This document shows, one piece after another, positions 8,453 through 27,186 of a stretch of DNA of 64,000 bases. Made by a program: the position numbers and the translations under genes. Origin of the DNA: Chitinophagales bacterium (GTDB lineage Bacteria; Bacteroidota; Bacteroidia; Chitinophagales; Saprospiraceae); the NCBI GenBank assembly GCA_017303475.1, contig JAFLBO010000014.1:76782-140781 (forward strand), read 5' to 3'. Under the pieces are notes generated by a model, which was given only the letters and a program-made list of their open reading frames with translations, ran no database searches and had not been told where the DNA came from. Every line of letters starts with the position of its first letter. The stretch's first letter is position 1.

Positions 8453-8860
8453 TTATGCGCCAATCTTTGGAGGCTGCCAAATGGAGAGATAAACGCTTTC
8501 TGGCAGGTGTCCGGCAAAGTAGAAAGCCAGTTTTTGCGCAGAAGAGCTAAAGGAGGATATGATAAAGAACATCGGAGGCGTTTCCTCCGCAAATGAGCCA
8601 GAGCAACTTATCATGCCGCAACCGGAACAGTGACAACCATCATTTTTATGGTCGCAAGGACAGTCGTGGCCGGAATGTCGGTGTTCGGAATTGCTATTTT
8701 GGTGCGTTTGCACCACACCTTTAGAACAACATGCGTTCGAAGATTTTTGATCACATTTTTCCATGTGAACGGCATCACCATTCCCACATGCCGATAGTGC
8801 GCCTATGGGCAACACAAGGAGGCAAAAAAGCGGGAATAATATACCTGAGTAAAATCTCAT
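8453..8860 (-). CDS. Small secreted Cys/His-rich protein (unknown function)
   Basis: Signal/lipobox LPIGALSAC. Cys/His cluster CDQKSSNACCSKGVVQTHQNSNSEHRHSGHDCPCDHKNDGCHCSGCGMISCSG. C-terminus ...SIWQPPKIGA. Confidence 0.6.
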   Translation of the reverse strand: MRFYSGILFPLFCLLVLPIGALSACGNGDAVHMEKCDQKSSNACCSKGVVQTHQNSNSEHRHSGHDCPCDHKNDGCHCSGCGMISCSGSFAEETPPMFFIISSFSSSAQKLAFYFAGHLPESVYLSIWQPPKIGA

Positions 8861-8913: not shown

Positions 8914-11022
8914 TCAAGATTGCATTGAGTGGATTAATTTAGCAGTCAAATCTTTTCTCAACAATTGCGCATTTAGCGCTACCACGATGGTACTTAAACT
9001 CATCAATACTGCCCCCATAGCCGGGCTGAGTACAAATTGCGGATATAATACGCCTGCGGCCAGTGGAATAGCCACCACATTATATCCCGTTGCCCACCAA
9101 AGGTTTTGAAGCATTTTGCGATAGGTCGCTTTGCCGAAATTGACCAACCCAAGCACATCTGAAGGCTTGCTGTCTGTCAAAATAATATCTGCTGTTTCGG
9201 CAGCCACATCGGTGCCAGAGCCAACGGCAATGCCTACATCTGCTTGTGCAAGTGCTGGAGCGTCATTCACGCCATCACCAGTCATGGCTACATACTCCCC
9301 TTTGGCTTGCAGGTCTTTCACGATTTCAACTTTTTGGTGGGGCAACACCTCAGCAAAATAGCCATCGAGTCCCAACTGTTCAGCGACGGCTTTCCCGACA
9401 GTGGCATTGTCGCCTGTAGCCATAAAAACTTTGATCCCTTGACTTTTCAACTGCCGTACCGCTTCAGTGGCATCGGGTCGGATTTGGTCAGATAGCGCAA
9501 GGAATCCCACCAATTTATCATCCTCCAATACAAAAACCACTGTCTCGGCAGCTGAACCAGCATCATCGACGGGCAGTTCGATGTTCTTTTCCTTCAAATA
9601 TCCAGGACTGACAACGCTGATTTTTTTGCCTTTTACTTGACCAGTGACGCCTTTGCCAGTGATGGAAGTAAAATTGGATACCGCTGGCAGTGACAGCCCA
9701 GCGGTTTTGGCTGCTGCAACTATGCCCTGAGCAATCGGATGCTGGCTCTCCTGTTCGAGCGCGGCAATGGTAGCGAGCAGGGTGTTTTTATCAAAATCTT
9801 GGGAAAGCGTTTGAATACGCGATACACCAAACTTCCCTTCAGTGAGCGTTCCCGTTTTGTCAAATACCATCGCCGTGATGCGTCGTGCATTTTCAAAAGC
9901 AGTCCTATTTCGAATAAGCAACCCACGCCGAGCGGTTATAGCCGTAGAAATAGCGACCACAAGTGGTATTGCTACACCGAGCGCATGTGGACAAGAAGTA
10001 ACCATGACCGTAACCATACGTTCAAGCGCAAAGGCCAGCGTCTGCCCTTTGGCGAGCCAGATGGCCAGCGTCCCGAATCCTACACTCAACGCAATAAAAG
10101 TCAGCCATTTAGCAGCGCGATCTGCCAAGTGTTGAGTCTGCGATTTGGCAGCTTGGGCTTCTTGCACCAGGGTAATAACCTTGTTGAGGTAACTGTCCTT
10201 GCCCGATTTGTCCACCCGAATTTTCAGACTACCTTCGCCGTTGATGGCCCCGGCGATAACTTTTGCGCCTTCTGTTTTTTGAACCGGAACGCTTTCACCT
10301 GTTAGCATACTCTCGTTCACGGTACTGCTGCCCTCAGTTACAGTGCCATCCACCGGAATTTTTTCGCCAGGCTTCACCAGGACGAGGTCTCCTATTTTCA
10401 ATTCATCCACGCGCATATCGTGCAACATTTCGCCACCGTGATACATATGCGCCTCGGCGGGCATCATTTTGACAATCAATTCCAAGGCTTTCGAGGCACC
10501 GGCAACGGATTTCATTTCGAGCCAATGCCCCAATAGCATAATAACGATCAGCGTGGCGAGTTCCCAATAGAAATCCATGCCCTCTACCAACCTGAAAACC
10601 ACAGCCGTGCTGTACAAGAATGCTACTGTTACGGCTATCCCGATGAGGGTCATCATGCCGGGCTGACGACGTTTTAGTTCGTCCCAAAGCCCGGTCAAAA
10701 ATGGCCAACCCCCATAAAAATAAATGATGCTGCCAAGCACAACCGATACCCAATCACGACCAGTAAAGTCGAAATGGTATCCGACTGCCATTTGAAACAT
10801 AGGGGAAATAGCCACTACAGGTACAGTAAGCACCAGGCATATCCAGAACCGCCGCAGGAAATCTGCAATCATCGCTGAATGGTCATGACCGCCACCATGT
10901 CCCGAATGACCTTCATTGTGCATCTCGCCTTGCATAACCATTCCATTGGGCATAACGTGTGAACTATGCCCGGAGTGATCATTCTGTGCTGGTTTTGGGT
11001 GTTCAGAGTGATGATGTTTCAT
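8914..11022 (-). CDS. copB: Copper-translocating P1B-type ATPase, CPH (P1B-3/CopB-like) subgroup with His-rich N-terminus
   Basis: N-terminus MKHHHSEHPKPAQNDHSGHSSH...HNEGHSGHGGGHDHS. TM6 motif SCPHALGVAIP. Phosphorylation site DKTGTLT and hinge motif MTGDGVNDAPALAQADVGIA. Confidence 0.9.
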   Translation of the reverse strand: MKHHHSEHPKPAQNDHSGHSSHVMPNGMVMQGEMHNEGHSGHGGGHDHSAMIADFLRRFWICLVLTVPVVAISPMFQMAVGYHFDFTGRDWVSVVLGSIIYFYGGWPFLTGLWDELKRRQPGMMTLIGIAVTVAFLYSTAVVFRLVEGMDFYWELATLIVIMLLGHWLEMKSVAGASKALELIVKMMPAEAHMYHGGEMLHDMRVDELKIGDLVLVKPGEKIPVDGTVTEGSSTVNESMLTGESVPVQKTEGAKVIAGAINGEGSLKIRVDKSGKDSYLNKVITLVQEAQAAKSQTQHLADRAAKWLTFIALSVGFGTLAIWLAKGQTLAFALERMVTVMVTSCPHALGVAIPLVVAISTAITARRGLLIRNRTAFENARRITAMVFDKTGTLTEGKFGVSRIQTLSQDFDKNTLLATIAALEQESQHPIAQGIVAAAKTAGLSLPAVSNFTSITGKGVTGQVKGKKISVVSPGYLKEKNIELPVDDAGSAAETVVFVLEDDKLVGFLALSDQIRPDATEAVRQLKSQGIKVFMATGDNATVGKAVAEQLGLDGYFAEVLPHQKVEIVKDLQAKGEYVAMTGDGVNDAPALAQADVGIAVGSGTDVAAETADIILTDSKPSDVLGLVNFGKATYRKMLQNLWWATGYNVVAIPLAAGVLYPQFVLSPAMGAVLMSLSTIVVALNAQLLRKDLTAKLIHSMQS

Positions 11023-11029
11023 AGTGTTT

Positions 11030-13993
11030 TTATCTTAAAATCACTTTTTCAGTCCCCAAAATCACATCCTCCAAACGGGCCGTTAGTATGTAAACCCCTG
11101 CCTGAATCCCCGTTGTTTTGAGTGTAAAAATTTGCTTTTCATTCGTTTTATCAAATAAGGAATAGTTCCGAACTTGTTTGCCAGCCGCATCCGTCAATTC
11201 AAAACTCAGCTTACCTGTCTTTTTTAAACCTATCTCAACCGATAAGAAGCCACCCGAAGCCATTGGGTTTGGAAAGACCCGAAATGACTCTACCCGGCCT
11301 GGTTCAAAAATGTTAACCGTAATAATAGTAACCGCCTGGGTGAGGGATTCCGTGCCGCATGGTCCCGTGGATATGAGAGTAACAGTGTAAGTTCCGTCAT
11401 TGGCGTATGTGTGTGATGGATCGGTTTGCGTGCTTGTGTTACCATCGCCAAAATCCCAGAGATAGCTGTTGGCATCGGTTGAAGTATTGGTAAAAGTAGC
11501 TGTTGCACCGATTATGGAACTGGTGAAACCTGGAATTGGCGAAGGGTTTGCATTAATATAATTCAGCTGTGTTGCCGTACTGATGCCCGCACTGTTACTC
11601 GCAGTTAGGATCACGGTATAAGTGCCAGGGCTCGGATACAATACAGCCGGGTTCTCATCTGAAGAGGAACTGGGCACACCCCCAGGGAATTGCCAGTCAA
11701 AATTCGTTGCATTGGTCGAAGACGTGCTGCTGAACTGCACTGCCAGTGGCGCACAACCATTGCTCAGATTGGATGAGAATCCTGCGGTGGGGGGAGTCGT
11801 AACTGTCACGGTTTGGGTAGTCGTGTCCGCGTTGCAAAGTCCATTTGCGATGAGCGTCACGGTATAAGTCCCATCATTGGAAAAATCGTGTGAAGGATCA
11901 GTCTGTGTACTCATGCTGCCATCTCCAAAATCCCAGACATAGCTGGCGGCATTACTGGAAGTGTTTAAAAACGAAGCTGTGGTACCATTCAGCAAGCTAC
12001 TGAAACTGGCAGTAGTCAAGGGACTCACCGTAATATAGTTCGTCTGCGTTGCGGAATTGCTACCAGCACTGTTACTCACCGTAAGTGTGACAGAGTAGCT
12101 GCCAGAGTTCGAATACACCACAGTTGGATTTTGTGTAGTGGACGAATTGGGTGTTGCGCCAGAGAATTGCCAGTTGAAGCTTGTTGTATTAGAAGAAGAT
12201 GTGCTTGTAAATTGGATTGTCAGCGGAGCACAACCATTCGTCTGATTGACCGTAAAACCTGCCGTCGGCGGCGCAACAACCACCGGAGGTGGGCCTGGCA
12301 AAATTCGTATCATACGGGCAACCGAAGGAATATCGTCCACCATTGCCCATAGCATATACCAGCCCGGCATCGAGCGCAGCGAATCGTTTGGCACAATAGC
12401 TTCTATGGCCTGTCCCTGCTGCGAGAAGTTAAGATCGAGGAAGCGGTTTTCCCCACAGTTCATCATGTGTGTAATAGCAGTAATGCTTTGCAGCACCACA
12501 GCGGTGGGCTCATTGGTTCTCCCGACCTCAAAACGGATCGTATCACCACGGTGGTAGTCCGTTTTTTGAAGATTTAATATTTGTGGGCGCACTCCCCGGA
12601 ACAAGTAGGGTGGCTTATAAGCATCGATAATACTTTGTGGAGGTTCATTACCCGGAGCACCTTCGCCGCCCACCACGATTATACGACCGTCTGGAACGAG
12701 TGTTGCAAGCGCATGGTATTCTCTTTTACGGGGCATAGGCATGAGTCGCCTCCAGGTATCTGCGTAGGGGTCATAAAGGTCTGTCAAAGCCATGTGTCCC
12801 CATTGGTTAACAGGAGTCGGATCGGAAGGCTCTTCTTTGAAGCCTGCAAGGGTCAGTATATGGCGGTCAGGCAGCAACACAGTTTCCGGACGTGAGCGCA
12901 AGGGTGCAAAATTGGATCGCAGCGTCCAGGTATTGGTGATGGGATCGTAGCGTTCGACCAGGTTGCCACCGCTGCCAGCCGGAAAAGGTTTGAAACCGAT
13001 AGCAATAACGTCGCCTTCGGGTAAGTGTACGAGTTCATGGTCAACGTGATCTCCATTAGGCATCCGGTTGCCTTGGACAAAATCGGAGGCCAAACTCCAC
13101 TGTTTCGTTGTAGGATCAAAGAGTTGAGGTGGCCGAAAAGTCATCAATACTTTGCCACTGTAAAGCGTCAGGATGGGCGATTGTTCCATACGGATGGCAA
13201 CGGTATCAGCCCATTCGGTAATACCGGTGATCGGATTGTACAATTCGCTTGTATTCACACGAACCGGGTTGTTCAGTCCACCGCCGCCAACGATGAGCAG
13301 CCTTCCATCGGCCAGTTGCGTCATGGCAGGGTACCAGCGATAGTCTAACATGGAGGGCAGAGGCTCCCATGTTTTAGTGGAAGTATTGTACTGTTTAACT
13401 TTATTGGAACCAGGGCCATATATTTCCTGGTCAGTGCCACCAGCCATGATGACCTTGCCATTCCAAAGCAGTTTCGGGGCAACGCAACCCTGTACTTTAG
13501 TATCTCCTGGGACAGTAACCGTATCATTGGCCGCCGGATCGAATGCAAAGGGGTCTTTAGTACTGTGGCAGTAATAAATAGTACCATTGGGCAACAGCAC
13601 TCCCAAGTCTGTGCCCCCGAGCGGTTCAGGAGAAACCATGATTATGTTCCATTGGCCTTGCTCTGTCTCAAGAGCGAGTTGCGCATTCTGAGTGATTGTG
13701 CCGATAATATTGGGAATTGCGTTTTGAAAATAAGCAAAACCAGGTTTGGCAGCACCAAATGACAAGGGTATACCGCTGGGGAGATTTGCAATCAAATATT
13801 GTCCTGAAGCATTGGTTCGGGTTTCCCAAAATTGAGAAGTATCAGCGTTGAACAATGTGATTCGAACATTTCCGACAGGTGCCCCGAGTGGATCAGTGAC
13901 AGTCCCAATCAGTGTTTGAGCCGACAAGGCGAGGGGCAGAAAGCAAAAAGCAAGCACTATTAACCGCATCATTTGTTCTTGTCGTGTAAGCAT
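11030..13993 (-). CDS. T9SS cargo: carboxypeptidase-regulatory-like domain + Kelch/glyoxal- or galactose-oxidase-like (copper radical oxidase, DUF1929) + 4 PKD domains + T9SS sorting domain
   Basis: YRWYPAMTQLADGRLLIVGG, REYHALATLVPDGRIIVVGGEG, PPYLFRGVRPQI, ITHMMNCGENRFLDL and MPGWYMLWAMVDDIPSVARMIRI resemble glyoxal/galactose oxidase. PKD signatures are WDFGDGSMSTQTDPSHDF and WDFGDGNTSTQTDPSHTY. The C-terminus FRVFPNPMASGG...GVYILTARL is a T9SS sorting domain. Confidence 0.75.
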   Translation of the reverse strand: MLTRQEQMMRLIVLAFCFLPLALSAQTLIGTVTDPLGAPVGNVRITLFNADTSQFWETRTNASGQYLIANLPSGIPLSFGAAKPGFAYFQNAIPNIIGTITQNAQLALETEQGQWNIIMVSPEPLGGTDLGVLLPNGTIYYCHSTKDPFAFDPAANDTVTVPGDTKVQGCVAPKLLWNGKVIMAGGTDQEIYGPGSNKVKQYNTSTKTWEPLPSMLDYRWYPAMTQLADGRLLIVGGGGLNNPVRVNTSELYNPITGITEWADTVAIRMEQSPILTLYSGKVLMTFRPPQLFDPTTKQWSLASDFVQGNRMPNGDHVDHELVHLPEGDVIAIGFKPFPAGSGGNLVERYDPITNTWTLRSNFAPLRSRPETVLLPDRHILTLAGFKEEPSDPTPVNQWGHMALTDLYDPYADTWRRLMPMPRKREYHALATLVPDGRIIVVGGEGAPGNEPPQSIIDAYKPPYLFRGVRPQILNLQKTDYHRGDTIRFEVGRTNEPTAVVLQSITAITHMMNCGENRFLDLNFSQQGQAIEAIVPNDSLRSMPGWYMLWAMVDDIPSVARMIRILPGPPPVVVAPPTAGFTVNQTNGCAPLTIQFTSTSSSNTTSFNWQFSGATPNSSTTQNPTVVYSNSGSYSVTLTVSNSAGSNSATQTNYITVSPLTTASFSSLLNGTTASFLNTSSNAASYVWDFGDGSMSTQTDPSHDFSNDGTYTVTLIANGLCNADTTTQTVTVTTPPTAGFSSNLSNGCAPLAVQFSSTSSTNATNFDWQFPGGVPSSSSDENPAVLYPSPGTYTVILTASNSAGISTATQLNYINANPSPIPGFTSSIIGATATFTNTSTDANSYLWDFGDGNTSTQTDPSHTYANDGTYTVTLISTGPCGTESLTQAVTIITVNIFEPGRVESFRVFPNPMASGGFLSVEIGLKKTGKLSFELTDAAGKQVRNYSLFDKTNEKQIFTLKTTGIQAGVYILTARLEDVILGTEKVILR
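11320..12277 (-). repeat. Tandem duplication of a two-PKD-domain unit (about 2 x 480 nt) inside the oxidase-like gene
   Basis: Protein units PPTAGFTVNQTNGCAPLTIQF...TQTVTVTT and PPTAGFSSNLSNGCAPLAVQF...TQAVTIIT align end to end. Boundaries are approximate. Confidence 0.7.
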
Positions 13994-14020
13994 AAGATAT
14001 CTCTTGGAAATAAAAATTAC

Positions 14021-14458
14021 TCAGCAGCAGTTCGTTTTACCTGCCTGCATCGGTGGGCAAACTACTGTCCCGTAACTACAAAAGACGCAACAATCGCCCT
14101 TCTTCGGTTTCAACAACGCGTGGCAGTTTTCGCATTCATAAAAAAACTGGCAGGCATCGGTCGGCATGGTTTCCTCTTTGGAAAAACCACATGCAGGACA
14201 GGTGATAAGGGATTGCAAAACAACTGCCTCAGCTTTTTCTTTTCGTTTTCCTTTTTTCCAGGAAGAATACCCTGCATAGCCAACCAACCCCACGCTTAGG
14301 ACCATAAGTGGCCCGCTGAAGGCCTCCAGTTTTCCAGACACAGCCGAAGCGCTGAAGATGGAGCCACCGACCGCGACGGCCAGCCAGGGGAGCCAGCAGC
14401 AAGCGGTGGCGAGCAGAAATGCGAAGAGGCTGCCGAGCAGCGCAGTGATGGTTTTCAT
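14021..14458 (-). CDS. Membrane protein: MerT/MerC-like N-terminal TM pair with CC motif + C-terminal GDCCVxC zinc-ribbon-like domain
   Basis: LLATACCWLPWLAVAVGG lies in TM1, followed by a second TM segment and a KKGKRKEK linker. Then CPACG...CQFFYECENCHALLKPKKGDCCVFCSYGTVVCPP...NCC. Confidence 0.7.
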   Translation of the reverse strand: MKTITALLGSLFAFLLATACCWLPWLAVAVGGSIFSASAVSGKLEAFSGPLMVLSVGLVGYAGYSSWKKGKRKEKAEAVVLQSLITCPACGFSKEETMPTDACQFFYECENCHALLKPKKGDCCVFCSYGTVVCPPMQAGKTNCC

Positions 14459-14496
14459 GTATTATTAAACAAGGCCTTTTTTTAAAAGTTGAGCAT

Positions 14497-15954
14497 TCAA
14501 CGCCACTTCACAATCCTGCCCGTTTTCCAAATCCCTCCCACATTTATCTGAATAAAATAAACCCCGGCGGGGTAAAGCGACAAGTCTAAAACTATGTTGC
14601 CAGCAAACAGGCCGTTGTTGGTATGCCACAGTGTATTGCCATGAACATCCGTGAGACGTGCTGTTGTGACCTCGCCCTGGAGTATTTCGAGGATAACTTC
14701 TCCTTTGGTCGGGTTTGGGAATAGCAAAATGTCTGCTGTTTTATTGCTTTCAGGCGCATTTGTGGAGCTGTTTTTGCTGAGTATGCCACGTCTGTACAAG
14801 ACATGGCCAGCCGTAGCATCTACGTAAACCAAATGGAAAATCCCGTCTCGGAATGCAATTGAAGGCAATTGTAATGTATGGTCCGGCACGGCAAAACGTT
14901 CGCTCTGGTTGTTTAAGCCCGACGCACCTTTCGTAGAAAAATCGAACAAAATTTCATTTCCATTTTCCACAAAAACTACCCCAATTGTGTCGCCTAATGA
15001 TGTCACGTCTGCTTGGCTCTGACTGATTTGATCGCCTGAAGCTGTGGGAAAATCCAACTGTTGACCTTTTTTCATTGTGCCTGCGTGAAGCGTACTAAGA
15101 TAAACGCGCGGCGTACCACTCGCTCCGCTCATCCAGACTGTAATTAGGCTATCTCCTGAACGCGCCATGCGTGGTCCCGCGACCGGGCAAAAATTTAGTT
15201 GCCAATCTGTTGCGTCTACGTCCGTTGCGGCATCAAAGGTAGCGGCTAAATCGGTTGACCGACTTACCCAGATGTCGCGCAGGTCTTGGTTGTTGTTGCG
15301 GAAAAGTAGCCAAACAGAATCGCCCGAAGCCAGCAAGTCAGACGTGCAACATTCGCAGACGGCACCACCAGGTGCGGGTGCATTTGCTATAACCGGATCG
15401 TCGTTAAAGGAAAAACCGCCATCTGTTGATCGCCGAACCAAGTAATCGGTATCATTGTTTTTATGCAAAATATAGCTTACTACCGGATTGCCTGTTCCAT
15501 CTACTGTAACCGCTGCTAAAATAGCGTAGCCACCAGCAACACTTCCTTGTACCGATGTGGGCGATCCAAAAGTGAGGCCACCATCTTTAGAACCTGCCAA
15601 GAAGATGCCCTGTTGTTCAAACACGATGAAAACCTGGCTGTCCGACAACGCAACATCATATCCCCCAAAACCATACAAAAGCGGCTCATCAGGCTCCTGT
15701 ACCACGCCGATTGGAGTTGTGAATGCCCCATTCTCGAATCGGGAACACCAGATTTGAGAAGTGAAGTTGACAAAGTCGCCGTTAATGCCCCAGGTTACCA
15801 AAGGAGTGCCATCGGGAAGCAGCGCGATGCGTGGTGATGTGATTGGCCTCGTAGTAGAGTCCACTACGATTGAATCCGACCATTGAACGGTGGTCTGTGC
15901 TGCTACAGTGAAACCTAAGAAGAGGAGTACGAAATAAACCAGCGTAATTTTCAT
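14497..15954 (-). CDS. T9SS cargo with BNR/sialidase-like beta-propeller
   Basis: BNR-like repeats SKDGGLTF and STDGGFSF. T9SS C-terminus LLFPNPTKGEV...GVYFIQINV. Confidence 0.55.
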   Translation of the reverse strand: MKITLVYFVLLFLGFTVAAQTTVQWSDSIVVDSTTRPITSPRIALLPDGTPLVTWGINGDFVNFTSQIWCSRFENGAFTTPIGVVQEPDEPLLYGFGGYDVALSDSQVFIVFEQQGIFLAGSKDGGLTFGSPTSVQGSVAGGYAILAAVTVDGTGNPVVSYILHKNNDTDYLVRRSTDGGFSFNDDPVIANAPAPGGAVCECCTSDLLASGDSVWLLFRNNNQDLRDIWVSRSTDLAATFDAATDVDATDWQLNFCPVAGPRMARSGDSLITVWMSGASGTPRVYLSTLHAGTMKKGQQLDFPTASGDQISQSQADVTSLGDTIGVVFVENGNEILFDFSTKGASGLNNQSERFAVPDHTLQLPSIAFRDGIFHLVYVDATAGHVLYRRGILSKNSSTNAPESNKTADILLFPNPTKGEVILEILQGEVTTARLTDVHGNTLWHTNNGLFAGNIVLDLSLYPAGVYFIQINVGGIWKTGRIVKWR

Positions 15955-15993
15955 AGTGCTTTAATTGAAAAACATTGATGGAGTTGCACATTC

Positions 15994-16031
15994 TGATCCC
16001 GGCCTTGCCTGTTTAGGCAAAGCCGGGATCA
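15994..16031 (-). terminator. 17-bp stem-loop (one mismatch) between the PKD gene stop and the next gene start; a possible terminator or processing site without a clear U-tract
   Basis: tgatcccggccttgcct gttt aggcaaagccgggatca, read directly from the sequence. It lies 20 nt downstream of the stop at 16051. Confidence 0.4.
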
Positions 16032-16050
16032 TCAATAAATTTTTAGCCTT

Positions 16051-17259
16051 TTATCGTTGGACCACGATTTGTTTGATGTACGGCGCACCATCCACCGTCA
16101 TTTTCAGGATATAAACTCCTGACATAAGATTAGCTACTGAAAAGACTTGAGTGTAATCTCCTTCTGCCTGAACACTTTCTGGCAACGCTGCCACCTTAGC
16201 ACCAGTCAGACTATAAATCTCAAACTTAACTTTTGCAGAACCCCGAATTTGATAAACAATTTTGACAAAGTCCACCGCCGGATTGGGATGAATGGTCATT
16301 AATTCAGTTGTGGAAATGGTGTGTACTGTCGCCGATTCATCATTTAAAGCAGATACTGCTTTAACCTCTTGATGGTGTGGGTTATGGAAATGCTGATGAC
16401 CATTATGGTGGACATTGATGGCATGACAGATATGCGAAGCACATCCTATTGTCAAGTCCTCAATAAAAAGACAAACGGTATAATGGCCTGCATGCGCATA
16501 GGCATGATGGGGGTCTTCCTCCGTGGAAGTAGTTCCATCACCAAAATCCCAGAAGTAGGTGGTGTGGGCAGTCGTCCCAGTAGAAGTGTTGGTAAATTGA
16601 ACTCCAAAGCCGCTGGCATCAAGATTGAAAATGAAAGCAGCATGGCAATCACCCGCAGGTGGATGATTCACCTGAATATGGTGGCACACATGACTGGTGC
16701 AGCCTCCATCATCATCATAGATCGTCAGACAAACCAGGTACGTGCCCGGAGCTGCATAAGTATGCGTTGGGTTTTGCTCTGTTGAGGTGCTGCCATCGCC
16801 AAAATCCCATTCCCAAGACACAATAACCCCGTCAGCAGTGGATTGGTCGGTGAAATCAATAGCCGGTTGGTTCAGGTCAGGCTGGTTTGCAATAAAAGAG
16901 GCATGACACTCATGTGGAGGGTGTGTTACCACCACATGATGACAAAAAGTAGCTGAACAATTTGGATTGTGCGCAGTAATGGTCAGACAGACATTGTAAG
17001 TACCAGGAGATGCGTAAGTATGGGTGGGATTTTGTTCTGTGCTTGTATTACCATCTCCAAAATCCCAATGATAGGAAGTGATATTTCCATCAGCCGTAGA
17101 TACATCTTCAAAGACTACCGTGCTTCCATTCACGGTAAAATGAAAACCCGGATGGCAGTGTTGCGCATTTCCCTGTTGGAAAGAAAACAATATACCGAGC
17201 AAGAGAATCAAAAAACGAGGAATTTGGGAAGTGGCAAAACTTGTTAAGGTCTGATTCAT
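16051..17259 (-). CDS. T9SS cargo: three PKD domains, each framed by conserved Cys/His motifs
   Basis: WDFGDGNTSTEQNPTHTY occurs twice and WDFGDGTTSTEEDPHHAY once. Framing motifs are HCHPGF/HECHASF/GDCHAAF at the start and CSATFCHHVVVTHPP/CTSHVCHHIQVNHPP/CASHICHAINVHHNGHQHFHNPHH at the end. T9SS C-terminus IHPNPAVDF...GVYILKMTV. Confidence 0.8.
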   Translation of the reverse strand: MNQTLTSFATSQIPRFLILLLGILFSFQQGNAQHCHPGFHFTVNGSTVVFEDVSTADGNITSYHWDFGDGNTSTEQNPTHTYASPGTYNVCLTITAHNPNCSATFCHHVVVTHPPHECHASFIANQPDLNQPAIDFTDQSTADGVIVSWEWDFGDGSTSTEQNPTHTYAAPGTYLVCLTIYDDDGGCTSHVCHHIQVNHPPAGDCHAAFIFNLDASGFGVQFTNTSTGTTAHTTYFWDFGDGTTSTEEDPHHAYAHAGHYTVCLFIEDLTIGCASHICHAINVHHNGHQHFHNPHHQEVKAVSALNDESATVHTISTTELMTIHPNPAVDFVKIVYQIRGSAKVKFEIYSLTGAKVAALPESVQAEGDYTQVFSVANLMSGVYILKMTVDGAPYIKQIVVQR

Positions 17260-17350
17260 GCGAAAAAGTGGTGATTATGACGAAGTGAAAGTGGTGAAAT
17301 ATTTTTGTGCCTCGAAGAAGTTTTTCGGACATGTACATAATGCCACGCAC

Positions 17351-17746
17351 TTAGTGGTTATGATTGCCGTGGTTATCACTGCCCTGCGGGCTTTCAATAT
17401 AGTGCATTCGCTCATACTGGCAGCAGCCGGGAAGATTGTTGTATGGTTTAGCCTTTGCCTCTACGAAAGTAGTATCATGACCTGCTTTGGCAATACGTTT
17501 TTGTACCGCAAGCGCTGAAGTTTTAGCAGCGTCGTATTCCAGAGTCATTTTTTTGGTCGTCACATCCCAGTCAGCTTTGATAACCCCTTTGCCCAGAGCG
17601 GCTGTTTCGATGCGTTTTTCGCACATTCCGCAGTTGCCACCTACCTCGAAAATAGTGGTTAAGAGGGTAGGGGTATTTTGAGAAAAAGCACTTAGCATTA
17701 GGGAAAAATAAAAGCCAAGGGTTAAGAAAAAATGTTTGAACGGCAT
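17351..17746 (-). CDS. Secreted HMA-domain metallochaperone-like protein with CCQYER motif and His-rich tail
   Basis: GGNCGMCEKRIETAA, PGCCQYERMH and C-terminal DNHGNHNH. It is paralogous to the N-terminal half of 7399..8295. Confidence 0.8.
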   Translation of the reverse strand: MPFKHFFLTLGFYFSLMLSAFSQNTPTLLTTIFEVGGNCGMCEKRIETAALGKGVIKADWDVTTKKMTLEYDAAKTSALAVQKRIAKAGHDTTFVEAKAKPYNNLPGCCQYERMHYIESPQGSDNHGNHNH

Positions 17747-17749
17747 GGT

Positions 17750-18448
17750 TTAGTTATTTTGAATATTAAAGGGATGATTTTGATGGGTTAGACTCTTATC
17801 CCCATAAACAGAGTAAATACGCATCGTCCCGAAAACCGTGTCCACTTTGGCTGATTCCTTGACACTTAGGAATCCTGCTTCCTGAAAAATCTGTGGCAGC
17901 TGCCCCTGCACGTTTTCGGTGGTCGTTTTGAAGCCATCAAGCAGTTGCACCACATAGAAAGCTAAACGCATCCGCCAGTTGGAGGGTTTGCCCCAGTCGG
18001 CTACATGTAGGCTTCCATCAAGTTTCAATACCCTACGAATCTCGCGCAGACTTTGCCGTTTCTGTTCAGGGTCGAGATGATGAAGCACAAGGCAGGTGAC
18101 TACTCGGTCGAAGCTGTGGTCAGAAAAAGGCAGGACACTCCCATCGTATTGCTCGACCTCCATTAACACACCAGATTTCTCAATTTTCTGCCGCGCTATA
18201 CGCAACACTTCCGGGTCTACATCCACTCCGATGACTTCCGGTAAACGGTGGATTTGTTTTAATAAAATGGAAAGCGAGGCAGTGCCAACTCCAAATTCGA
18301 GGACACGATGGCCTTTTTGGATATTGGCACTATCTATGAGTGCACGACGCACCCTGACTTCCGGGAATACTTTTGCCATGACTAAGTCATACCAACGGGT
18401 CAACCATCGGTAACGCAGAGCCGGTATGTAATTTTGAGTTGCACTCAT
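17750..18448 (-). CDS. Class I SAM-dependent methyltransferase
   Basis: Motif I VLEFGVGTASLS, followed by DRVVTCLVLHHL and LKLDGSLHVADWG. It lies 3 nt upstream of the HMA gene. Confidence 0.8.
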   Translation of the reverse strand: MSATQNYIPALRYRWLTRWYDLVMAKVFPEVRVRRALIDSANIQKGHRVLEFGVGTASLSILLKQIHRLPEVIGVDVDPEVLRIARQKIEKSGVLMEVEQYDGSVLPFSDHSFDRVVTCLVLHHLDPEQKRQSLREIRRVLKLDGSLHVADWGKPSNWRMRLAFYVVQLLDGFKTTTENVQGQLPQIFQEAGFLSVKESAKVDTVFGTMRIYSVYGDKSLTHQNHPFNIQNN

Positions 18449-18502
18449 TTTTTAATAAAAAACATTAATTGAATTAACCTCTATCAGCAGGCAATTCAGG
18501 CT

Positions 18503-18865
18503 TTATTTAGCAAAATCAATTTGGAAGTAGTCGTTCCCTAAATTGTTGTCCAACCGCATCGTACCGGTTGCTATATGGTGAATACACCACTTTTTCTCTC
18601 CTAAATTTAGTTTTAATTTGGCTTCATCCACCGTCCATACCCCAACCAGAGGTTGGTTAAAGGGTATAATATTCGTAGTGATTTTGAAAGTCATATCACT
18701 TTTCAAAATCAGATTCATCGTTGCATTGGAAGGCGTTGCCCCATCAATTCTTACTTCAGTTGACTTCCATTCACCAATAAAGTTTTCTTCATATGGCATC
18801 TTTTCGCGAGTGCATGCATGGAGTCCGATTATGCCAGCCAATAGTATTAAGCAAAGTAATTTCAT
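18503..18865 (-). CDS. Small lipoprotein, lipocalin-like (hypothetical)
   Basis: Lipobox GLHAC. Pattern WKSTEVRIDG...VGVWTVDEAKLKLNLGEKKWCIHHIATGTMRL. It is a paralogue of 19021..19395. Confidence 0.5.
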   Translation of the reverse strand: MKLLCLILLAGIIGLHACTREKMPYEENFIGEWKSTEVRIDGATPSNATMNLILKSDMTFKITTNIIPFNQPLVGVWTVDEAKLKLNLGEKKWCIHHIATGTMRLDNNLGNDYFQIDFAK

Positions 18866-19020
18866 GGCATTTTTTTTGCAAATGAAAGGGTTGTTACACC
18901 AGATTTCAGGTTCTACTCATTGGCAGCATTTTTTGACAAAAAGGGGTTTGAATAGCCATTGAAATAAACGGAATGCCCTTTTTGGAATCGTGTCAATCGT
19001 CATTTTAAGCCCATTTTTTT

Positions 19021-19395
19021 CTATTTATTCAAGTCAATTTCCATCTCTTTGCCATCCACCGTATTGGCTATACGCAAAGTATTGCCTTCGAGGTGGTGTA
19101 TCGTCCAGACATTGCCGGACAAAGTGAGTTTGGAGTTGGCCTCATCAGCACTCCATTTCCCAGAAGTAGGATGGGTAAAGGGCGTGATATTGGTGGCGAT
19201 TTCAAAGTTGTCGCCAGTTTGCAGGTGTAGGAACATGGTTGTGGTAGAAGGTGCTGCTACACCGTCGATTTTCACAGCAGTGGAGTTCCACTCGGCGGTG
19301 AGTTGCTCGGTATAAGTTGCTTTGTCTTTTTTACAGGCAATGAATGCCACGGCGACGAAAGAAAGGGAGAATAGAATGCTATTGAAACGGTTCAT
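19021..19395 (-). CDS. Small lipoprotein, lipocalin-like (hypothetical), paralogue of 18503..18865
   Basis: Lipobox AFIAC; WNSTAVKIDG...SGKWSADEANSKLTLSGNVWTIHHLEGNTLRI. Confidence 0.5.
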   Translation of the reverse strand: MNRFNSILFSLSFVAVAFIACKKDKATYTEQLTAEWNSTAVKIDGVAAPSTTTMFLHLQTGDNFEIATNITPFTHPTSGKWSADEANSKLTLSGNVWTIHHLEGNTLRIANTVDGKEMEIDLNK

Positions 19396-19587
19396 TTTTG
19401 TAAGAAATTTAAGTTTGAGTGTTAAATTTTAGATTCATTTGAAAAAACAGCCTCGACCAGGCAAATGGCTGGTTACTGGATTTCGCAATTGAGTTTTTGT
19501 TGGTGGGAATGAGTATTGTGCTCAAATAGGGTGTTGTTAGTCTATTCAAGAAAAACAGACTGACGGTTGCTAACCCGGAGATATTTT

Positions 19588-20227
19588 TCACAAATACATC
19601 AACTGCATTGGCCCAGACATCGCTACCATCAACACATCTTCAAACAATGTCATTTTGCTCATAGGCAATTTGAATACTGCGCCGAGACAGGCGCATTGAA
19701 GCTTACGTTTTGTGAGCAGGCTTTGCACCACACCTATTTTACTCATACCCATAACGGCAAATGTCAAACAGTTCGTGACCGATGGGTTGTAATCCAGCAG
19801 GCACAAAACACCCAGAGCAAGCTCTACGAAAGGATAAGTATATCCCAGCCCAACCAACACCGTGCTACGACATCGAAACTTCTGTATGAAACAGTAAAAG
19901 CCGGAACATCAGGCATTTTGAAAGAGAGAACCCGAGAAAAAATCCAACCATAAAATGGCGCATCCTTCGCATCCAATCAAAGGCTCCGGCTGCTGCTTCA
20001 ACCAACAGCGTAGCTCCGAGGATGTAGCTGAACACCAACAGAATGGGCTTGTACGTCTCCAAAAATGTGCGCGAGGCCTCTACATCCGCCAAGTTCGCGG
20101 TGGGTGCTACCTGGGCGTCCAGCGTCTTCCTTCCATACCACCGATGTTCAGCTTTGAACTGTGTTAGGGTAATTCCAGTGACTTGCCGAAACTGTTTGCT
20201 CAAATGTTGTGTGCTGGTGTATACAGT
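19588..20227 (-). pseudogene. Decayed locus: 3' remnant of an AraC-type HTH fused in frame to a MauE/DoxX-like membrane protein gene that carries two apparent 1-nt deletions
   Basis: The track splits it into 19865..20203 (TTG start) and 19588..19860 (GTG start). Frame A reads ...AFDWMRRMRHFMVGFFLGFSLSK. Frame B, after the 4-nt homopolymer at 19916-19919, reads MPDVPAFTVSYRSFDVVAR. Frame C, from about 19860, reads VLVGLGYTYPFVELALGVLCLL...KLQCACLGAVFKLPMSKMTLFEDVLMV. The first ~35 codons (TVYTSTQHLSKQFRQVTGITLTQFKAEHR) look like the last HTH of an AraC regulator, cut off by the adaptor stop at 20233. Confidence 0.55.
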
Positions 20228-20232
20228 CTAAA

Positions 20233-21474
20233 TCACATTTTGTGCCCAGCCATTGGGTCTGACCCTTTTTTAAACACCAATTCGCTGTTCAGCAGGTAAG
20301 CTCCTGATACGACCACGATTTCCCCGGATTGCAACCCCTCAACGATTTCAGTATAATCTTCATTGGCAATGCCGATGCGCACCATACGGCCTTCGAAGCC
20401 TCCATTGGCATTTTTTATCCAAACAGTAGTGCCACGACTTTCCTGGATCAGTGCGTTGGTCGGCACTGCAAGCGTCCGACGGGTTTTGCCTTTCAAGGTA
20501 ATCCAGGCCTGCATACCCGGCTGATATTCACCGCTTGGGTTGGGTATTTCCACGCGGGTCAGAATGATTTTGGAAGCGGCTTCGAGGTTGGGGTTGACAA
20601 AACTGACCTTGCCGCTGAGAATGCGCCCTGGGTAATACGGCAAAGTAACCGAGGCTTCGCGGGTTTGGGCAAGAAAGGGCAAATCGCTGACGTAAAGTTG
20701 CGCTTCTGCCCAGAGGGTGCGCAAGTCGGCAAGTTTCAGCACGGTCGAGCCTTCTGTCACATAGCTGCCTTCGGCGGGCGGGGATTCCATGACATAACCA
20801 GAGTATCTGCTATAAAACGTGACCGTGTTTTTGGGTGCGCCGGACTGTTCGATTTCCTGCAACTGCGCTTCGGTCATACCCCAGAGTAGCAGTTTGTTAC
20901 GGGCTGCATCCGCAATGCGGGAAAAATCGAGATCGGTGCTGCCATAGCGATTTTTGCTTTTCAACGCCAGCAAATAATCCTGCTGTGCAGAGGCGAGTTC
21001 TTCGCTGTACAATTCAAAAACGGCTTGGCCTGCCCGCACGTATTCGCCTACATTGCGCACGAAAAGTCGGTCAATCCTACCGGTAAGCCTAGCGGTCACA
21101 GAGTTAATGCGATTTTGATTTTCGCGCAGCGTTGCAGCAAGGGAGATTTCTTCGCCCAACGCTTGCTGCCACACCGTGTCGGTCTGGATGTTGGCGAGCC
21201 GGATTTGTTCGGCACTGAGTTTTATCTCGTTCTCTTTTTTATCGGCGGCAATTTCTACCCGAACCAAAGGCATTTTGCAGATCGGGCAAGGTCCGGGCTT
21301 TTGTTCAACTACCTGCGGATCCATGGAGCAGGTGTAGTAAACGTTTTCCTCCACCGGGACGGGGGTGGGCTTGTTGCAGGCGACCAGTAAAAGTGTCACG
21401 ACGAACAGGCTACGTTTACGAAACTTAAAAAGTTTCGTAAACGTCACTTCTCCTTTTATTCTCAAAGTATTCAT
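20233..21474 (-). CDS. RND efflux periplasmic adaptor (CusB-like) with N-terminal heavy-metal-binding domain, copy 2
   Basis: HMBD motif YYTCSMDPQVVEQKPGPCPICKMPLV. MFP hairpin/barrel regions LASAQQDYLLALKSK and LLWGMTEAQLQEIEQSG. Confidence 0.85.
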   Translation of the reverse strand: MNTLRIKGEVTFTKLFKFRKRSLFVVTLLLVACNKPTPVPVEENVYYTCSMDPQVVEQKPGPCPICKMPLVRVEIAADKKENEIKLSAEQIRLANIQTDTVWQQALGEEISLAATLRENQNRINSVTARLTGRIDRLFVRNVGEYVRAGQAVFELYSEELASAQQDYLLALKSKNRYGSTDLDFSRIADAARNKLLLWGMTEAQLQEIEQSGAPKNTVTFYSRYSGYVMESPPAEGSYVTEGSTVLKLADLRTLWAEAQLYVSDLPFLAQTREASVTLPYYPGRILSGKVSFVNPNLEAASKIILTRVEIPNPSGEYQPGMQAWITLKGKTRRTLAVPTNALIQESRGTTVWIKNANGGFEGRMVRIGIANEDYTEIVEGLQSGEIVVVSGAYLLNSELVFKKGSDPMAGHKM

Positions 21475-24026: not shown

Positions 24027-25937
24027 TCAATCGTTGAATTGAACGAGTTTCAGTGTTCCGGTTTCCCTCAATTCGTATTCCCTTACGATGGCAAACAGCA
24101 CCGGCAGCACAATCAGCACAAAAAGCGTAGAGGTAATCAGACCGAACACAAAGGGTATAACAATGGGTTTCATCACATCGCTGCCCGTCCCGGTAGCCAG
24201 CAGCACGGGCAAGAGGCCAATAATATCTACCATGACTGTCATCAGTTTGGGGCGCAAACGAAGAACAGCGCCGTCGTAAATAGCGTCTTCGACATCCTGA
24301 TTGGTGAAAGATCTGCTTTCTGCTTTCAGTTTGGATGATTTATCGTACAGCGAATTGTTCATATAAACAAGCATCAGGATACCCGTTTCCACGGCCACAC
24401 CAAACAGTGCAATGAACCCGACAGCCACAGCGACCGAAAAATTGACATCAAAAAAATGAAGGGAATACGCGCCGCCAACGAGCGCGACGGGTATGCCAGT
24501 GAGGACAATCAGTGTTTCGCGAAAAGATTTAAAAGTGAAATACAGGATCATCATAATGATGACAAGCACAATCGGCATGATAATCGTCAGACGCTCGTTC
24601 GCACGCACCTGGTTTTCGTATTGGCCGCTCCATTCTAAGAAATACCCCTTCGGTAGTTTCTGTACGGCGGTTTCCAACTTCTTTTTTGCATCAGCCACGG
24701 TGCTTCCCAAATCGCGGTCGCGTACATTGAACAAAAGCGTTCCGCGCAGCAATGCATTTTCGGAATTGATCATTGGGGGGCCGTCTGAAACACTTACATC
24801 GGCTACTGCTGAAAGCGGAATAGGCCCATATTCCATCGTTTGCATTTGCAACCGTTTCAATTTTTCAATTTTATCCCTGAAATCCTGCGCGAAGCGGACG
24901 TTCACTGAAAAACGTTGCCGCCCTTCAATCGTTGTAGTGACGTTCATGCCACCCAACGCCGTCTCGATAAACATATTCACATCGTCTATAGTCAGCCCGT
25001 AGCGCCCAATTTCATCTTTTCGAATTTTTATGTCAACATACATTCCTCCGGTAATCGGCTCGGCATACAAATCCTTCACACCATCAACGCCCTGCAACTC
25101 TAGCCTGAACTGTTGCGCCAATTTGTTGATGGTATCAAGGTTCTGACCATATATTTTTACCCCTACATCCGTCCGGATCCCGGTGGAAAGCATATTGATC
25201 CGGTTGATGATGGGCTGCGTCCAGCCATTCACTACGCCGGGAATTTGAAGTTTGGCGTTGAGTTGGTCAATGATGTCGTTTTTTGTCATCCCGTCTCGCC
25301 ACTGCGATTGTGGTTTGAGCAGAATGATCGTTTCAATCATGCTCACGGGTGCGTTGTCGGTGGCGGAGTTCGCTCTGCCCGCTTTACCCAGCACATTTTC
25401 CACTTCGGGAAAATCTTTGATGATTTTGTCCTGCACCTGCATGATGCGTTTGATTTCGGAGTTGGAAACGCTGGGCAAGGTGACCGGCATAAACAAAAGC
25501 GAACCTTCGTCCAACGGGGGCATAAACTCCGTACCGAGATTCAGTACCAGGGGAATACTGCCCAGCACAAGTGCAACGCTCAACACAACGGTTGTTTTTT
25601 TCCACCGCATACACAAAAGGATGATGGGCGAATAAATCCACTTGAAAAAACGAGAAACGGGGTGCTTGCTTTCCGGGCGAATTTTTCCTTTCAAAAGCAT
25701 GACCATCAAAACCGGGACGAGGAACACTACGACAAAGGCAGAGCCTATCATGGCAAAAGTCTTTGTCCATACGAGCGGAGAAAACAGTTTGTGCTCCTGC
25801 CCGGTGAGGAACAAAATCGGACTGAATGACACCAACGTGATGAGGATGGAGCTCACGATGGCACCTCCAATCAGTTTGGATGATTTTTCAATCCGGGATT
25901 CTCTTTCTTCGTTGCTGAGCATATTATTCTGTTTCAT
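24027..25937 (-). CDS. CusA/CzcA-family RND pump, C-terminal fragment (TM5 to TM12) of a frameshift-split gene
   Basis: LIGGAIVSSILITLVSFSPILFLTGQEHKLFSPLVWTKTFAMIGSAFVVVFLVPVLM..., through the second large periplasmic loop and the TM8-12 region. It overlaps the N-terminal fragment by 14 nt in another frame. Confidence 0.85.
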   Translation of the reverse strand: MKQNNMLSNEERESRIEKSSKLIGGAIVSSILITLVSFSPILFLTGQEHKLFSPLVWTKTFAMIGSAFVVVFLVPVLMVMLLKGKIRPESKHPVSRFFKWIYSPIILLCMRWKKTTVVLSVALVLGSIPLVLNLGTEFMPPLDEGSLLFMPVTLPSVSNSEIKRIMQVQDKIIKDFPEVENVLGKAGRANSATDNAPVSMIETIILLKPQSQWRDGMTKNDIIDQLNAKLQIPGVVNGWTQPIINRINMLSTGIRTDVGVKIYGQNLDTINKLAQQFRLELQGVDGVKDLYAEPITGGMYVDIKIRKDEIGRYGLTIDDVNMFIETALGGMNVTTTIEGRQRFSVNVRFAQDFRDKIEKLKRLQMQTMEYGPIPLSAVADVSVSDGPPMINSENALLRGTLLFNVRDRDLGSTVADAKKKLETAVQKLPKGYFLEWSGQYENQVRANERLTIIMPIVLVIIMMILYFTFKSFRETLIVLTGIPVALVGGAYSLHFFDVNFSVAVAVGFIALFGVAVETGILMLVYMNNSLYDKSSKLKAESRSFTNQDVEDAIYDGAVLRLRPKLMTVMVDIIGLLPVLLATGTGSDVMKPIVIPFVFGLITSTLFVLIVLPVLFAIVREYELRETGTLKLVQFND

Positions 25938-27186
25938 TTACAAGAGATTTCATTGCGTTTTCAACCATAACAATACCGGCATCTACCAAATCGCCCACGG
26001 CCAGGGCGATGCCTGCCAGCGACATGATGTTGGAGGTAATCCCAAACCAACTCATCAGGATGAATGAAATAAGCACCGAAATCGGGATAGTAATGACCAC
26101 AATCAGGGTGCTCCTAACGTGTAGCAGGAAAATAAAAAGCACGATGCACACCACGATGATTTCTTCGATGACAGCTTCTTTCAACGTGGCGATGGTGGCT
26201 TCTATCAGATCGGAGCGGTCGTAAGCCATTTTGAATTTAACGCCAGGCGGCAGGCCTTTTTCTACGTCTTTTAGTTTTTCTTTCAAGCGGTCAATCACAT
26301 CCTTTGCGTTTTCTCCGTACCGCATCACGACGATGCCGCCTACTTTTTCGCCTTCGCCGTTTTCTTCGACAATGCCTAAACGGAGTTCGCCGCCCATTTG
26401 CACTGCTGCCACATCGCGTACTTTTATCGGGATGCTATTCAGGGTTTTGAGTGTGATGTTTTCAATTTCACGCATGTCTTTGATATAGCCCAATCCCCGG
26501 ATGATGTAGCCAATGTCAGATTGCTCGAACTTCCTGCCGCCCACGTCGTTGTTGTTCGCCTTTATTTTTTCGGCGACCTCCATAATGCTGATGCCGTAAT
26601 AATTGAGTTTCAAGGGATCCACCACCACCTGGTATTGTTTCTGGAAACCGCCATACGAGGCAACCTCGCTCACCCCTTTCACGGTTTGCAGCGCGAATCG
26701 GATGTACCAATCCTGCAATGCCCGCAACTCCCCCAGATCATAGCCGGGCGCATCAAGCGTGTACCAATAAATATGTCCCAACCCTGTTCCGTCTGGTCCG
26801 AGTGTCGGGACAACCCCTTCAGGAAGAAGGCGTTGCGCATAATTCAAACGTTCCAGTACACGGGTGCGAGCCCAATAAATATCCACGTCGTCTTCAAAAA
26901 CCACGAATACAAAACTCATCCCGAACATACTGTTCGCGCGGATATTTTTCACCTTTGGGATACCCTGCAAATTACTTACAAGTGGATACGTGACCTGGTC
27001 TTCCATGATTTGGGGGCTTCGCCCCATCCACTCGGTGAAAATGATGACCTGATTTTCCGACAAATCGGGAATGGCATCAACAGGCGTATTCTTCACTGCG
27101 AAAATCCCATACGCGGCAACAGCCGCAGACATCAACAAAACGACGATGCGGTTTTTAAGCGACCAAGTGATTAGAGCATCAATCAT
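25924..27186 (-). CDS. CusA/CzcA-family RND pump, N-terminal fragment (TM1 to TM4) of a frameshift-split gene
   Basis: Real start is ATG 27186 (MIDALITWSLKNRIVVLLMSAAVAAYGIFAVKNTPVDAIPDLSENQVIIFTEWMGRSPQIMEDQVTYPL...). It ends ...GDLVDAGIVMVENAMKSLVNETE*. The start overlaps the upstream ATPase stop in ATGA. Confidence 0.85.
   Translation of the reverse strand: MIDALITWSLKNRIVVLLMSAAVAAYGIFAVKNTPVDAIPDLSENQVIIFTEWMGRSPQIMEDQVTYPLVSNLQGIPKVKNIRANSMFGMSFVFVVFEDDVDIYWARTRVLERLNYAQRLLPEGVVPTLGPDGTGLGHIYWYTLDAPGYDLGELRALQDWYIRFALQTVKGVSEVASYGGFQKQYQVVVDPLKLNYYGISIMEVAEKIKANNNDVGGRKFEQSDIGYIIRGLGYIKDMREIENITLKTLNSIPIKVRDVAAVQMGGELRLGIVEENGEGEKVGGIVVMRYGENAKDVIDRLKEKLKDVEKGLPPGVKFKMAYDRSDLIEATIATLKEAVIEEIIVVCIVLFIFLLHVRSTLIVVITIPISVLISFILMSWFGITSNIMSLAGIALAVGDLVDAGIVMVENAMKSLVNETE

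Follow-up and report, generated by a model that had tools for sequence, protein, structure and literature searches.

A histidine-rich PKD-domain protein with a type IX sorting domain in a Bacteroidota copper island

The window analyzed here is a 64,000-nucleotide stretch of a Chitinophagales bacterium genome (Saprospiraceae; assembly GCA_017303475.1, contig JAFLBO010000014.1, positions 76,782 to 140,781 of the forward strand). Within an island of copper-resistance genes it carries, on the minus strand, an open reading frame (ORF) for a protein, P0001, whose three PKD domains are crowded with histidine and cysteine. An earlier reading of the sequence (the original prediction) had suggested that this array may be an extracellular metal sponge or sensor specific to the island, with both residues as candidate ligands. 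We find that the histidine enrichment, unlike the cysteine scaffold, is specific and conserved, and that histidine-rich PKD proteins form a recurrent, undescribed family found almost only beside copper-resistance genes.

Architecture of the gene and its product

The gene encodes the following features, the array of the original prediction being residues 34–297 (positions 16369..17160).

16051..17259, minus strand: whole gene, 402 amino acids, with a signal peptide, three PKD domains, a His-rich tail, a linker and a type A C-terminal sorting domain (CTD) of the type IX secretion system (T9SS); from the ORF list, translation, Pfam and NCBIfam
17164..17259, minus strand: signal peptide, residues 1–32, predicted cleavage between GNA and QHC; from the orthologue alignment and a predicted helix at residues 13–29
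16915..17163, minus strand: PKD repeat 1, residues 33–115; Cys 35, 91, 101 and 106; nine His
16657..16914, minus strand: PKD repeat 2, residues 116–201; Cys 118, 177, 187 and 192; seven His
16405..16656, minus strand: PKD repeat 3, residues 202–285; Cys 205, 263, 273 and 278; 10 His
16372..16404, minus strand: His-rich tail NGHQHFHNPHH, residues 286–296, straight after H284 and H285; predicted disordered
16294..16371, minus strand: flexible linker, residues 297–322; low pLDDT (predicted local distance difference test)
16054..16293, minus strand: T9SS type A CTD, residues 323–402; PF18962, TIGR04183 and predicted beta-sandwich strands

P0001 belongs to the PKD family and to the T9SS type A cargo, and to no described copper-binding family. 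Pfam places three domains under PKD_4 (PF18911; E 8e-54, 180 bits against a cut-off of 27), and the PKD profile (PF00801) matches the same number of stretches at 123 bits (cut-off 23.5). The C terminus matches Por_Secre_tail (PF18962; E 7.5e-10, 39.4 bits, cut-off 27) and TIGR04183 (39.8 bits, NCBIfam cut-off 23), and NCBIfam returned nothing more specific for this protein than the type A sorting domain. The genome also encodes GldM, a core T9SS component (291 bits against a cut-off of 180). At the N terminus, a hydrophobic helix at residues 13–29 precedes A32 and Q33, both invariant across an alignment of 16 orthologues. The cleavage site between them follows the −3/−1 rule and the Gln that is habitual at +1 of Bacteroidota signal-peptidase products. 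Together these features bear out the suggestion that P0001 is T9SS cargo. The idea of a sensor is not supported, as the protein contains no signaling or membrane part. A histidine brace at the mature N terminus was likewise considered and rejected: the conserved cleavage leaves Gln, not His, at position 1.

An AlphaFold model built on the 16 orthologues gives the PKD domains a pLDDT of 80–96, draws the CTD as a beta-sandwich and leaves residues 286–318 disordered (pLDDT <50). Each repeat shows the seven-strand pattern of an immunoglobulin-like (Ig-like) PKD fold, with the F-G hairpin and the WDFGDG and NPxHxY core, and coupling analysis of PKD repeats recovers the F-G, C-F and B-E ladders. Tandem Repeats Finder detected no DNA-level repeats between 16000 and 17300, so the three repeats are old duplicates.

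The motifs quoted in the original prediction are all in the translation. Each repeat opens with xCH(P/A)xF (HCHPGF, ECHASF and DCHAAF), contains VCL and closes with CxxxxCH(H/A)x.V.H, in full CSATFCHHVVVTHPP, CTSHVCHHIQVNHPP and CASHICHAINVHHNGHQHFHNPHH; HHNGHQHFHNPHH follows repeat 3. The predicted four Cys per repeat are likewise present, and repeats 1 to 3 have 9, 7 and 10 His. The first repeat has His of its own (H34, H40 and H97), those of the second are at 116, 119, 166, 190, 193, 194 and 199, and the third is of a "last-repeat" type with extra His at family alignment columns 30, 54 and 57. The 14 residues from 284 to 297 include 7 His, of which H284 and H285 are already counted in repeat 3. 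Over the whole mature array (residues 33–297, 265 residues) there are 31 His, 12 Cys and 27 Asp/Glu, but no Met, Lys or Arg. With 8.2% His, P0001 exceeds the 99th percentile for raw ORFs of 200 amino acids or more in its own genome, where no other PKD ORF has >3% His and no other has four-Cys repeats.

A common cysteine scaffold and a family-specific histidine layer

The cysteines were compared across 4842 PKD repeats, which a profile based on 64 seed repeats extracted from 270 retrieved proteins; 2884 were unique after filtering, a sample biased toward relatives of the query. All three repeats of P0001 carry Cys at alignment columns 3, 61, 70 and 75 (C1 to C4). The four occur together in 586 of the 2884 unique repeats, and 255 of these 586 belong to proteins with <3% His (for example, nCQADF...VCLTI...GCxDTYCDTVxV). 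Of the four, C3 corresponds to the generic "GC" cysteine of PKD domains and is found in 87% of repeats. We take the four-Cys scaffold to be an inheritance from a PKD subclass that is common in Bacteroidota. Arrays of this subclass in other T9SS cargo (P0097, P0049 and P0118) share with P0001 the fold, the WDFGDG and NPxHxY core, the position and spacing of the four Cys, and the layout of signal peptide, PKD array and type A CTD. They differ in having Gln/Asn, Thr, Asp/Gln and Thr where the His-rich family has His, in containing Lys and Arg, and in lacking both a His tail and neighboring copper genes.

Two lines of evidence divide the cysteines into pairs. C2 and C4 co-occur with a phi of 0.97 (830 repeats with both; 4 and 31 with one alone), and repeats with exactly two of the four have either C1 and C3 (81 repeats) or C2 and C4 (129), any other combination being seen at most three times. 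In a mean-field direct-coupling analysis of 2483 repeats, C2-C4 (columns 61–75) was the top-ranked coupling by a wide margin and C1-C3 (columns 3–70) ranked ninth; the F-G hairpin ladder (i+j=136) in the same analysis puts C2 directly opposite C4. Because co-occurrence and direct coupling agree on this pairing, we read the cysteines as structural disulfides and not as thiolate ligands. The four Cys of each repeat would then most simply be two staples, C1-C3 and C2-C4. A PDB sequence search returned only solved PKD domains that lack these Cys and the family's His. About 5% of repeats have another Cys pair, at columns 15 and 82, possibly a third staple.

The view that the Cys are metal ligands could be rescued if reduced thiolates combined with His into a Cu(I)- or Zn-type site in each repeat. 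Motif spacing (CH, CxxxxCHH, C-x4-C) does set His next to Cys, and other proteins of the island use Cys motifs (HMA, HMBD, GDCCVxC). Yet the identical four Cys occur in low-His PKD proteins of nonmetal contexts, where none of three genes lies beside copper genes; their pairing is exclusive, and C2 faces C4 directly across the hairpin; export takes the protein into an oxidizing compartment; and the absence of Met is unusual for extracytoplasmic Cu(I) sites. We regard thiolate sites as improbable. An even more exotic possibility is that CTSHVCH is a CX4CH variant of the c-type heme motif and the array an extracellular multiheme wire. The CX4CH spacing recurs in every repeat and the island encodes a Haem_bd protein. 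However, C3 and C4 pair with different cysteines, C1 and C2; the residue after CX4C is Asp or Gln in low-His relatives, and within the family only 75% of repeats have His at C4+1; and the motif sits in a beta strand of an Ig-like fold, with no cytochrome family matched in Pfam. Covalent heme attachment is therefore extremely improbable. Membership of the c-type cytochromes was rejected on the same grounds, the motif cysteines being paired elsewhere and the His after the second of them not being invariant.

The histidines behave differently. Family repeats, defined by a protein His content of 5% or more (303 unique repeats, 68 proteins), average 7.6 His each, against 1.4 in low-His four-Cys repeats and 1.4 in generic repeats. 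The claim that ordinary PKD domains lack these residues is borne out for the extra His and is not confirmed for the four Cys. The enrichment falls on fixed columns.

Column 4 (C1+1): His in 58% of family repeats
Column 10 (end of strand A): His in 40% of family repeats
Column 54: His in 37% of family repeats
Column 73 (C3+3): His in 52% of family repeats
Column 76 (C4+1): His in 75% of family repeats
Column 77 (C4+2): His in 39% of family repeats
Column 81 (end of strand G): His in 48% of family repeats
Column 82 (end of strand G): His in 55% of family repeats

In both comparison sets these columns have 0–7% His, the usual residues being Gln/Asn, Thr, Asp/Lys/Gln or Thr. The original prediction had named a motif common outside metal contexts as grounds for doubt; the Cys scaffold is such a motif, with its 255 low-His repeats, and the His columns are not. 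Several of the family-specific His are conserved in all, or in >90%, of the 16 three-repeat orthologues, the most distant of which is 45% identical. The tail is also widespread: 42 of 65 family proteins have at least five His within 25 residues after the last PKD Cys. By contrast, the His of NPxHxY (column 50) is generic in PKD domains and is coupled with the Asp of WDFGDG, and is therefore structural. In the whole repeat alignment this pair (columns 39 and 50) gives the second-strongest coupling.

Where these histidines might sit was approached through strand topology and covariation. In the PKD fold, strands A and G both start at the "top" end, beside the F-G loop, and strand G runs to the "bottom", the end from which the next repeat starts. 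The C1-C3 link would hold column 4 to the start of strand G, and direct coupling joins column 6 with column 76; this would bring His4, His73 and His76 into one neighborhood at the top. The whole repeat set also yields couplings 73–82 and 68–82; these are impossible as contacts within a domain and so would fit an interface at which the bottom of one repeat meets the top of its successor. The set that gives them is mostly generic, without His in those columns, although family repeats were not excluded from it. Within the family, His73 covaries with both His81 and His82 (phi 0.66) and also with His10 (phi 0.49). First repeats, with no domain before them, have a separate set at columns 2, 8 and 67 (mutual phi 0.58–0.67), and last repeats are followed by the His tail. 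One histidine cluster per domain end or junction would fit this pattern, and our hypothetical assignment for P0001 comprises four candidate clusters: H34/H36/H97/H107, H113/H116/H119/H190/H193, H199/H206/H276/H279, and H284/H285 with the tail.

Copper genes around the family

Pfam and NCBIfam calls on the neighbors confirm that the gene lies in a copper island, as had been predicted. All genes from about 1.4 kb to 34 kb of the window are on the minus strand, in the following order.

Minus strand: multicopper oxidase with HMBD
Minus strand: Haem_bd protein
Minus strand: two DUF3347 proteins with HMBD or HMA
8914..11022, minus strand: copper P1B-type ATPase with a His-rich N terminus and a CPH motif
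11030..13993, minus strand: galactose-oxidase-like Kelch protein with four ordinary PKD domains and a CTD, an internal low-His comparison
14021-14458, minus strand: GDCCVxC membrane protein
14497..15954, minus strand: BNR-like T9SS cargo with a CTD, 485 amino acids, immediately downstream of the PKD gene
16051..17259, minus strand: the His-rich PKD gene
17351..17746, minus strand: secreted HMA-domain protein with a His-rich C terminus, immediately upstream of the PKD gene
Minus strand: methyltransferase
Minus strand: two CusB-like adaptors, an outer-membrane factor and a CusA-like RND pump

The Kelch neighbor provides the contrast that had been drawn for it: its PKD region (residues 566–900) has only 2 His and 4 Cys in 335 residues. 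A scan of 13900–20300 for sigma-70 promoters and terminators returned fewer sites than shuffled sequences, and since it does not cover Bacteroidota promoters it is silent on operon structure.

Far from being specific to this island, the protein has many relatives. At least 65 His-rich PKD proteins were retrieved, mostly from metagenome assemblies of Saprospiraceae and Chitinophagales, all of them named in the databases only as "PKD domain-containing protein". A search of representative proteins was dominated by giant generic PKD proteins and served only as a background set, and a scan of species-representative genomes found only one locus (L019) and a short one (L020) in the family. Among 15 genomes of the same genus, none has a close homologue (E <= 1e-60), so the PKD gene here is accessory and island-borne. 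The DNA pattern C-T-x-H-[VIM]-C-H-H occurs only in its own genome among 401 genomes of the order, but this pattern is too strict (it misses members L019 and L020) to be evidence of absence. A full-text literature search found no paper on His-rich PKD proteins or on T9SS copper-binding proteins.

What these proteins have in common is their neighborhood. Twelve homologues were examined on their contigs, in addition to the genome scan, and every locus was tested by tblastn with the copper proteins of the window. Copper genes adjoin nine of the ten family loci with usable flanks. For controls, which comprised 54 generic PKD loci of at least 10 kb and three low-His four-Cys proteins, the figure is 2 of 57, both weak P-type ATPase hits. 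The difference gives a Fisher p of ~1e-8, a significance that is overstated because kin are not independent. The neighbors include P1B ATPases, multicopper oxidases (some with a CTD), CusA/CusB, HMA, HMBD and DUF3347 proteins, a galactose-oxidase-like protein and MbnP/MauG. Relatives of the window's P1B ATPase, at 58–62% identity, lie near the PKD gene in four loci (L003, L013, L014 and L019). Gene order varies, and the source assemblies are labeled Saprospiraceae, Ferruginibacter and Bacteroidota. Counting the window, efflux genes are the most constant neighbors (10 of 11 loci), and 6 of 11 loci have an exported cuproenzyme close by.

The last of these figures invites the idea that the surface His array is a scaffold that metallates coexported T9SS cuproenzymes, or takes copper from them, rather than simply sequestering it. 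In those six loci the enzyme is T9SS-tagged, either a galactose-oxidase-like protein with a CTD (the window, L012 and L019) or a multicopper oxidase with a CTD (L011, L013 and L100), and two loci (L013 and L014) have MbnP/MauG genes of a copper-acquisition type nearby. However, the other five loci have no exported cuproenzyme in the flank, efflux genes being the steadier partner, and there is no evidence of contact between the proteins. T9SS cargo is generally thought to fold before export, and if so metallation at the surface may be unneeded. We consider such a hand-off unlikely.

It is also conceivable that the array has no metal role and is an ordinary PKD spacer or adhesin, its histidines serving, for example, pH-dependent charge switching, or reflecting compositional drift in a gene that hitch-hikes in a mobile island. 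PKD arrays are usually stalks or adhesins, a fold search returns nothing but generic Ig-like rods (GhpA, fibronectin and titin among them), and one family locus (L099) is without copper neighbors. Yet the His positions are fixed and conserved down to 37–45% identity, Lys, Arg and Met are excluded from the array, and hitch-hiking is hard to square with nine of ten loci in copper contexts across gene orders and taxa. A role without metal seems to us quite unlikely, slightly more so than the hand-off.

A proposed extracellular copper buffer

We favor, with a probability of roughly 0.55, a function as an extracellular or surface buffer or trap for divalent copper, which would capture copper outside the cell, including Cu(II) released by oxidases or pumps, and so lower its re-entry. 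After Sec export and cleavage between A32 and Q33, the domains would fold and form their disulfides in the periplasm. By analogy with other members of the cargo family, in which the T9SS performs passage across the outer membrane and the CTD is removed, the same would then happen to P0001. The expected product is a short rod of three Ig-like PKD domains on or outside the outer membrane. In each domain, C1-C3 would tie the N-terminal strand to the beginning of strand G, with C2-C4 spanning the F-G hairpin. Onto this frame His would have been placed in exchange for polar Gln/Asn, Thr or Asp/Lys at C1+1, column 10, C3+3, C4+1, C4+2 and the last two residues of strand G, while the family also appears to have lost all Lys, Arg and Met and gained its His-rich tail. 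The result would be an anionic rod, free of Lys and Arg, with ~31 imidazoles as its sole nitrogen ligands. These imidazoles, together with the many carboxylates, may bind divalent metal, most likely Cu(II), at sites that are probably clusters at domain ends and junctions. Cu(II), or else Zn or Ni, is favored over Cu(I) because there is no Met and the location is oxidizing. The protein would thus be an accessory to the efflux and oxidase genes with which it travels. What we observe directly is the architecture, the conserved Cys and His columns, the statistics of Cys pairing and the proximity of copper genes; the disulfide chemistry, the location of the His clusters, the bound metal and the buffering role are what we infer.

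Several points weigh against a copper buffer. The neighborhood speaks for copper, yet sites of His and carboxylate would also bind Zn or Ni. P0001 matched none of CopC (PF04234), PCuAC, YcnI/DUF1775, the cupredoxins, HMA or HMBD (Pfam at E <= 0.01, NCBIfam at E <= 0.001). The AlphaFold model has a predicted template modeling score (pTM) of 0.33, too low for a confident placement of the domains relative to one another, and the proposed clustering of His is drawn from strand topology and covariation. Moreover, His covariation inside the family is confounded by repeat class (first, middle or last). Finally, the L099 protein (P0064) has no copper gene in its available flank, only sulfur-transport genes.

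It is useful to set P0001 beside known copper proteins. PcoE and SilE are periplasmic metal "sponge" proteins of copper and silver islands, small, largely disordered and rich in His and Met. Like them, P0001 is an accessory, nonenzymatic, His-rich protein that is encoded in a copper-resistance island and exported from the cytoplasm, and the buffering role proposed here is the same. Unlike them, it is predicted to be a folded, disulfide-stapled Ig-like array without Met that T9SS exports beyond the outer membrane; Pfam and NCBIfam found no sequence similarity between them. CopC/PcoC and YcnI are Ig-like beta-sandwich proteins, encoded in copper loci, that bind Cu(II) through His. P0001 shares with these the beta-sandwich domains and the copper setting. 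Their mature N-terminal His forms an amino-terminal Cu site, whereas the predicted mature N terminus of P0001 is Gln and its His are on strands A and G and at domain ends. By function, P0001 would most resemble the PcoE/SilE sponge idea combined with the Ig-like CopC and YcnI, with a different fold context, ligand layout and location. The closest solved structures by sequence are the PKD domains of the collagenases ColH and ColG (PDB 9LQJ, 4U6T and 2Y72; E 2e-23 to 4e-11). These lack all four Cys as well as every family-specific His, and they bind Ca2+ or collagen rather than transition metals.

A more specific and more tentative proposal is that the stapled PKD domain is a new metal-binding module. 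The bottom His of one repeat (columns 10, 81 and 82) and the top His of the next (columns 4, 73 and 76) might form one Cu(II) site per junction, in which case the number of repeats, three to seven in relatives, would set the copper capacity of a rigid, T9SS-exported surface rod. Such rods would be an extracellular tier of copper defense in Bacteroidota without described counterpart. We think this possible but doubtful.

A copper-buffering PKD array would be relevant in several respects. First, copper handling in Bacteroidota is poorly studied, and to our knowledge the known bacterial copper defenses act in the cytoplasm and periplasm; a His-decorated array exported by T9SS would, if real, add a step outside the outer membrane. 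Second, a few fixed substitutions on an unchanged disulfide scaffold would have turned a common structural domain into a metal binder, and the low-His relatives are a natural control set for this change. Finally, the family is recognizable by sequence (four Cys, His at columns 4, 73, 76, 81 and 82, and no Lys, Arg or Met) and can be annotated in metagenomes.

Some smaller observations concern the neighboring genes. In the window, the CusA-like RND pump appears as two overlapping minus-strand ORFs (24027-25937 and 25924-27405) that cover positions 2–415 and 417–1021 of the ACR_tran profile, a split that could reflect a frameshift, a pseudogene or an error of assembly. A small lipoprotein-like ORF packed with Cys and His lies at 8453-8860 (minus strand), without a Pfam or NCBIfam match; a 2026 PNAS paper on metal-binding, lipidated macrocyclic peptides from Bacteroidota (PMC13056109) may be relevant to it. 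A counterpart of the BNR-like CTD protein (14497-15954), 68% identical, follows the PKD gene without a gap in L001 (11693-13168) and L002. L001 also encodes a GDCCVxC protein 62% identical to that of the window at 14021-14458. Other family loci do not show this partnership. A DUF8199 protein of 126–128 amino acids is encoded directly downstream of the PKD gene in L012 (11554-11934) and L100 (12079-12465), two loci that are otherwise arranged differently. In L013 (9329-12399) and L014 (14823-17929), a cassette of copper-acquisition type, comprising MbnP and two MauG/CCP-type diheme peroxidase genes, lies a few kilobases from the PKD gene. In L003, L011 and L098, the genes adjoining the PKD gene include a recurrent pair, an AraC-type regulator and, after it, an HMA-MauE fusion protein.

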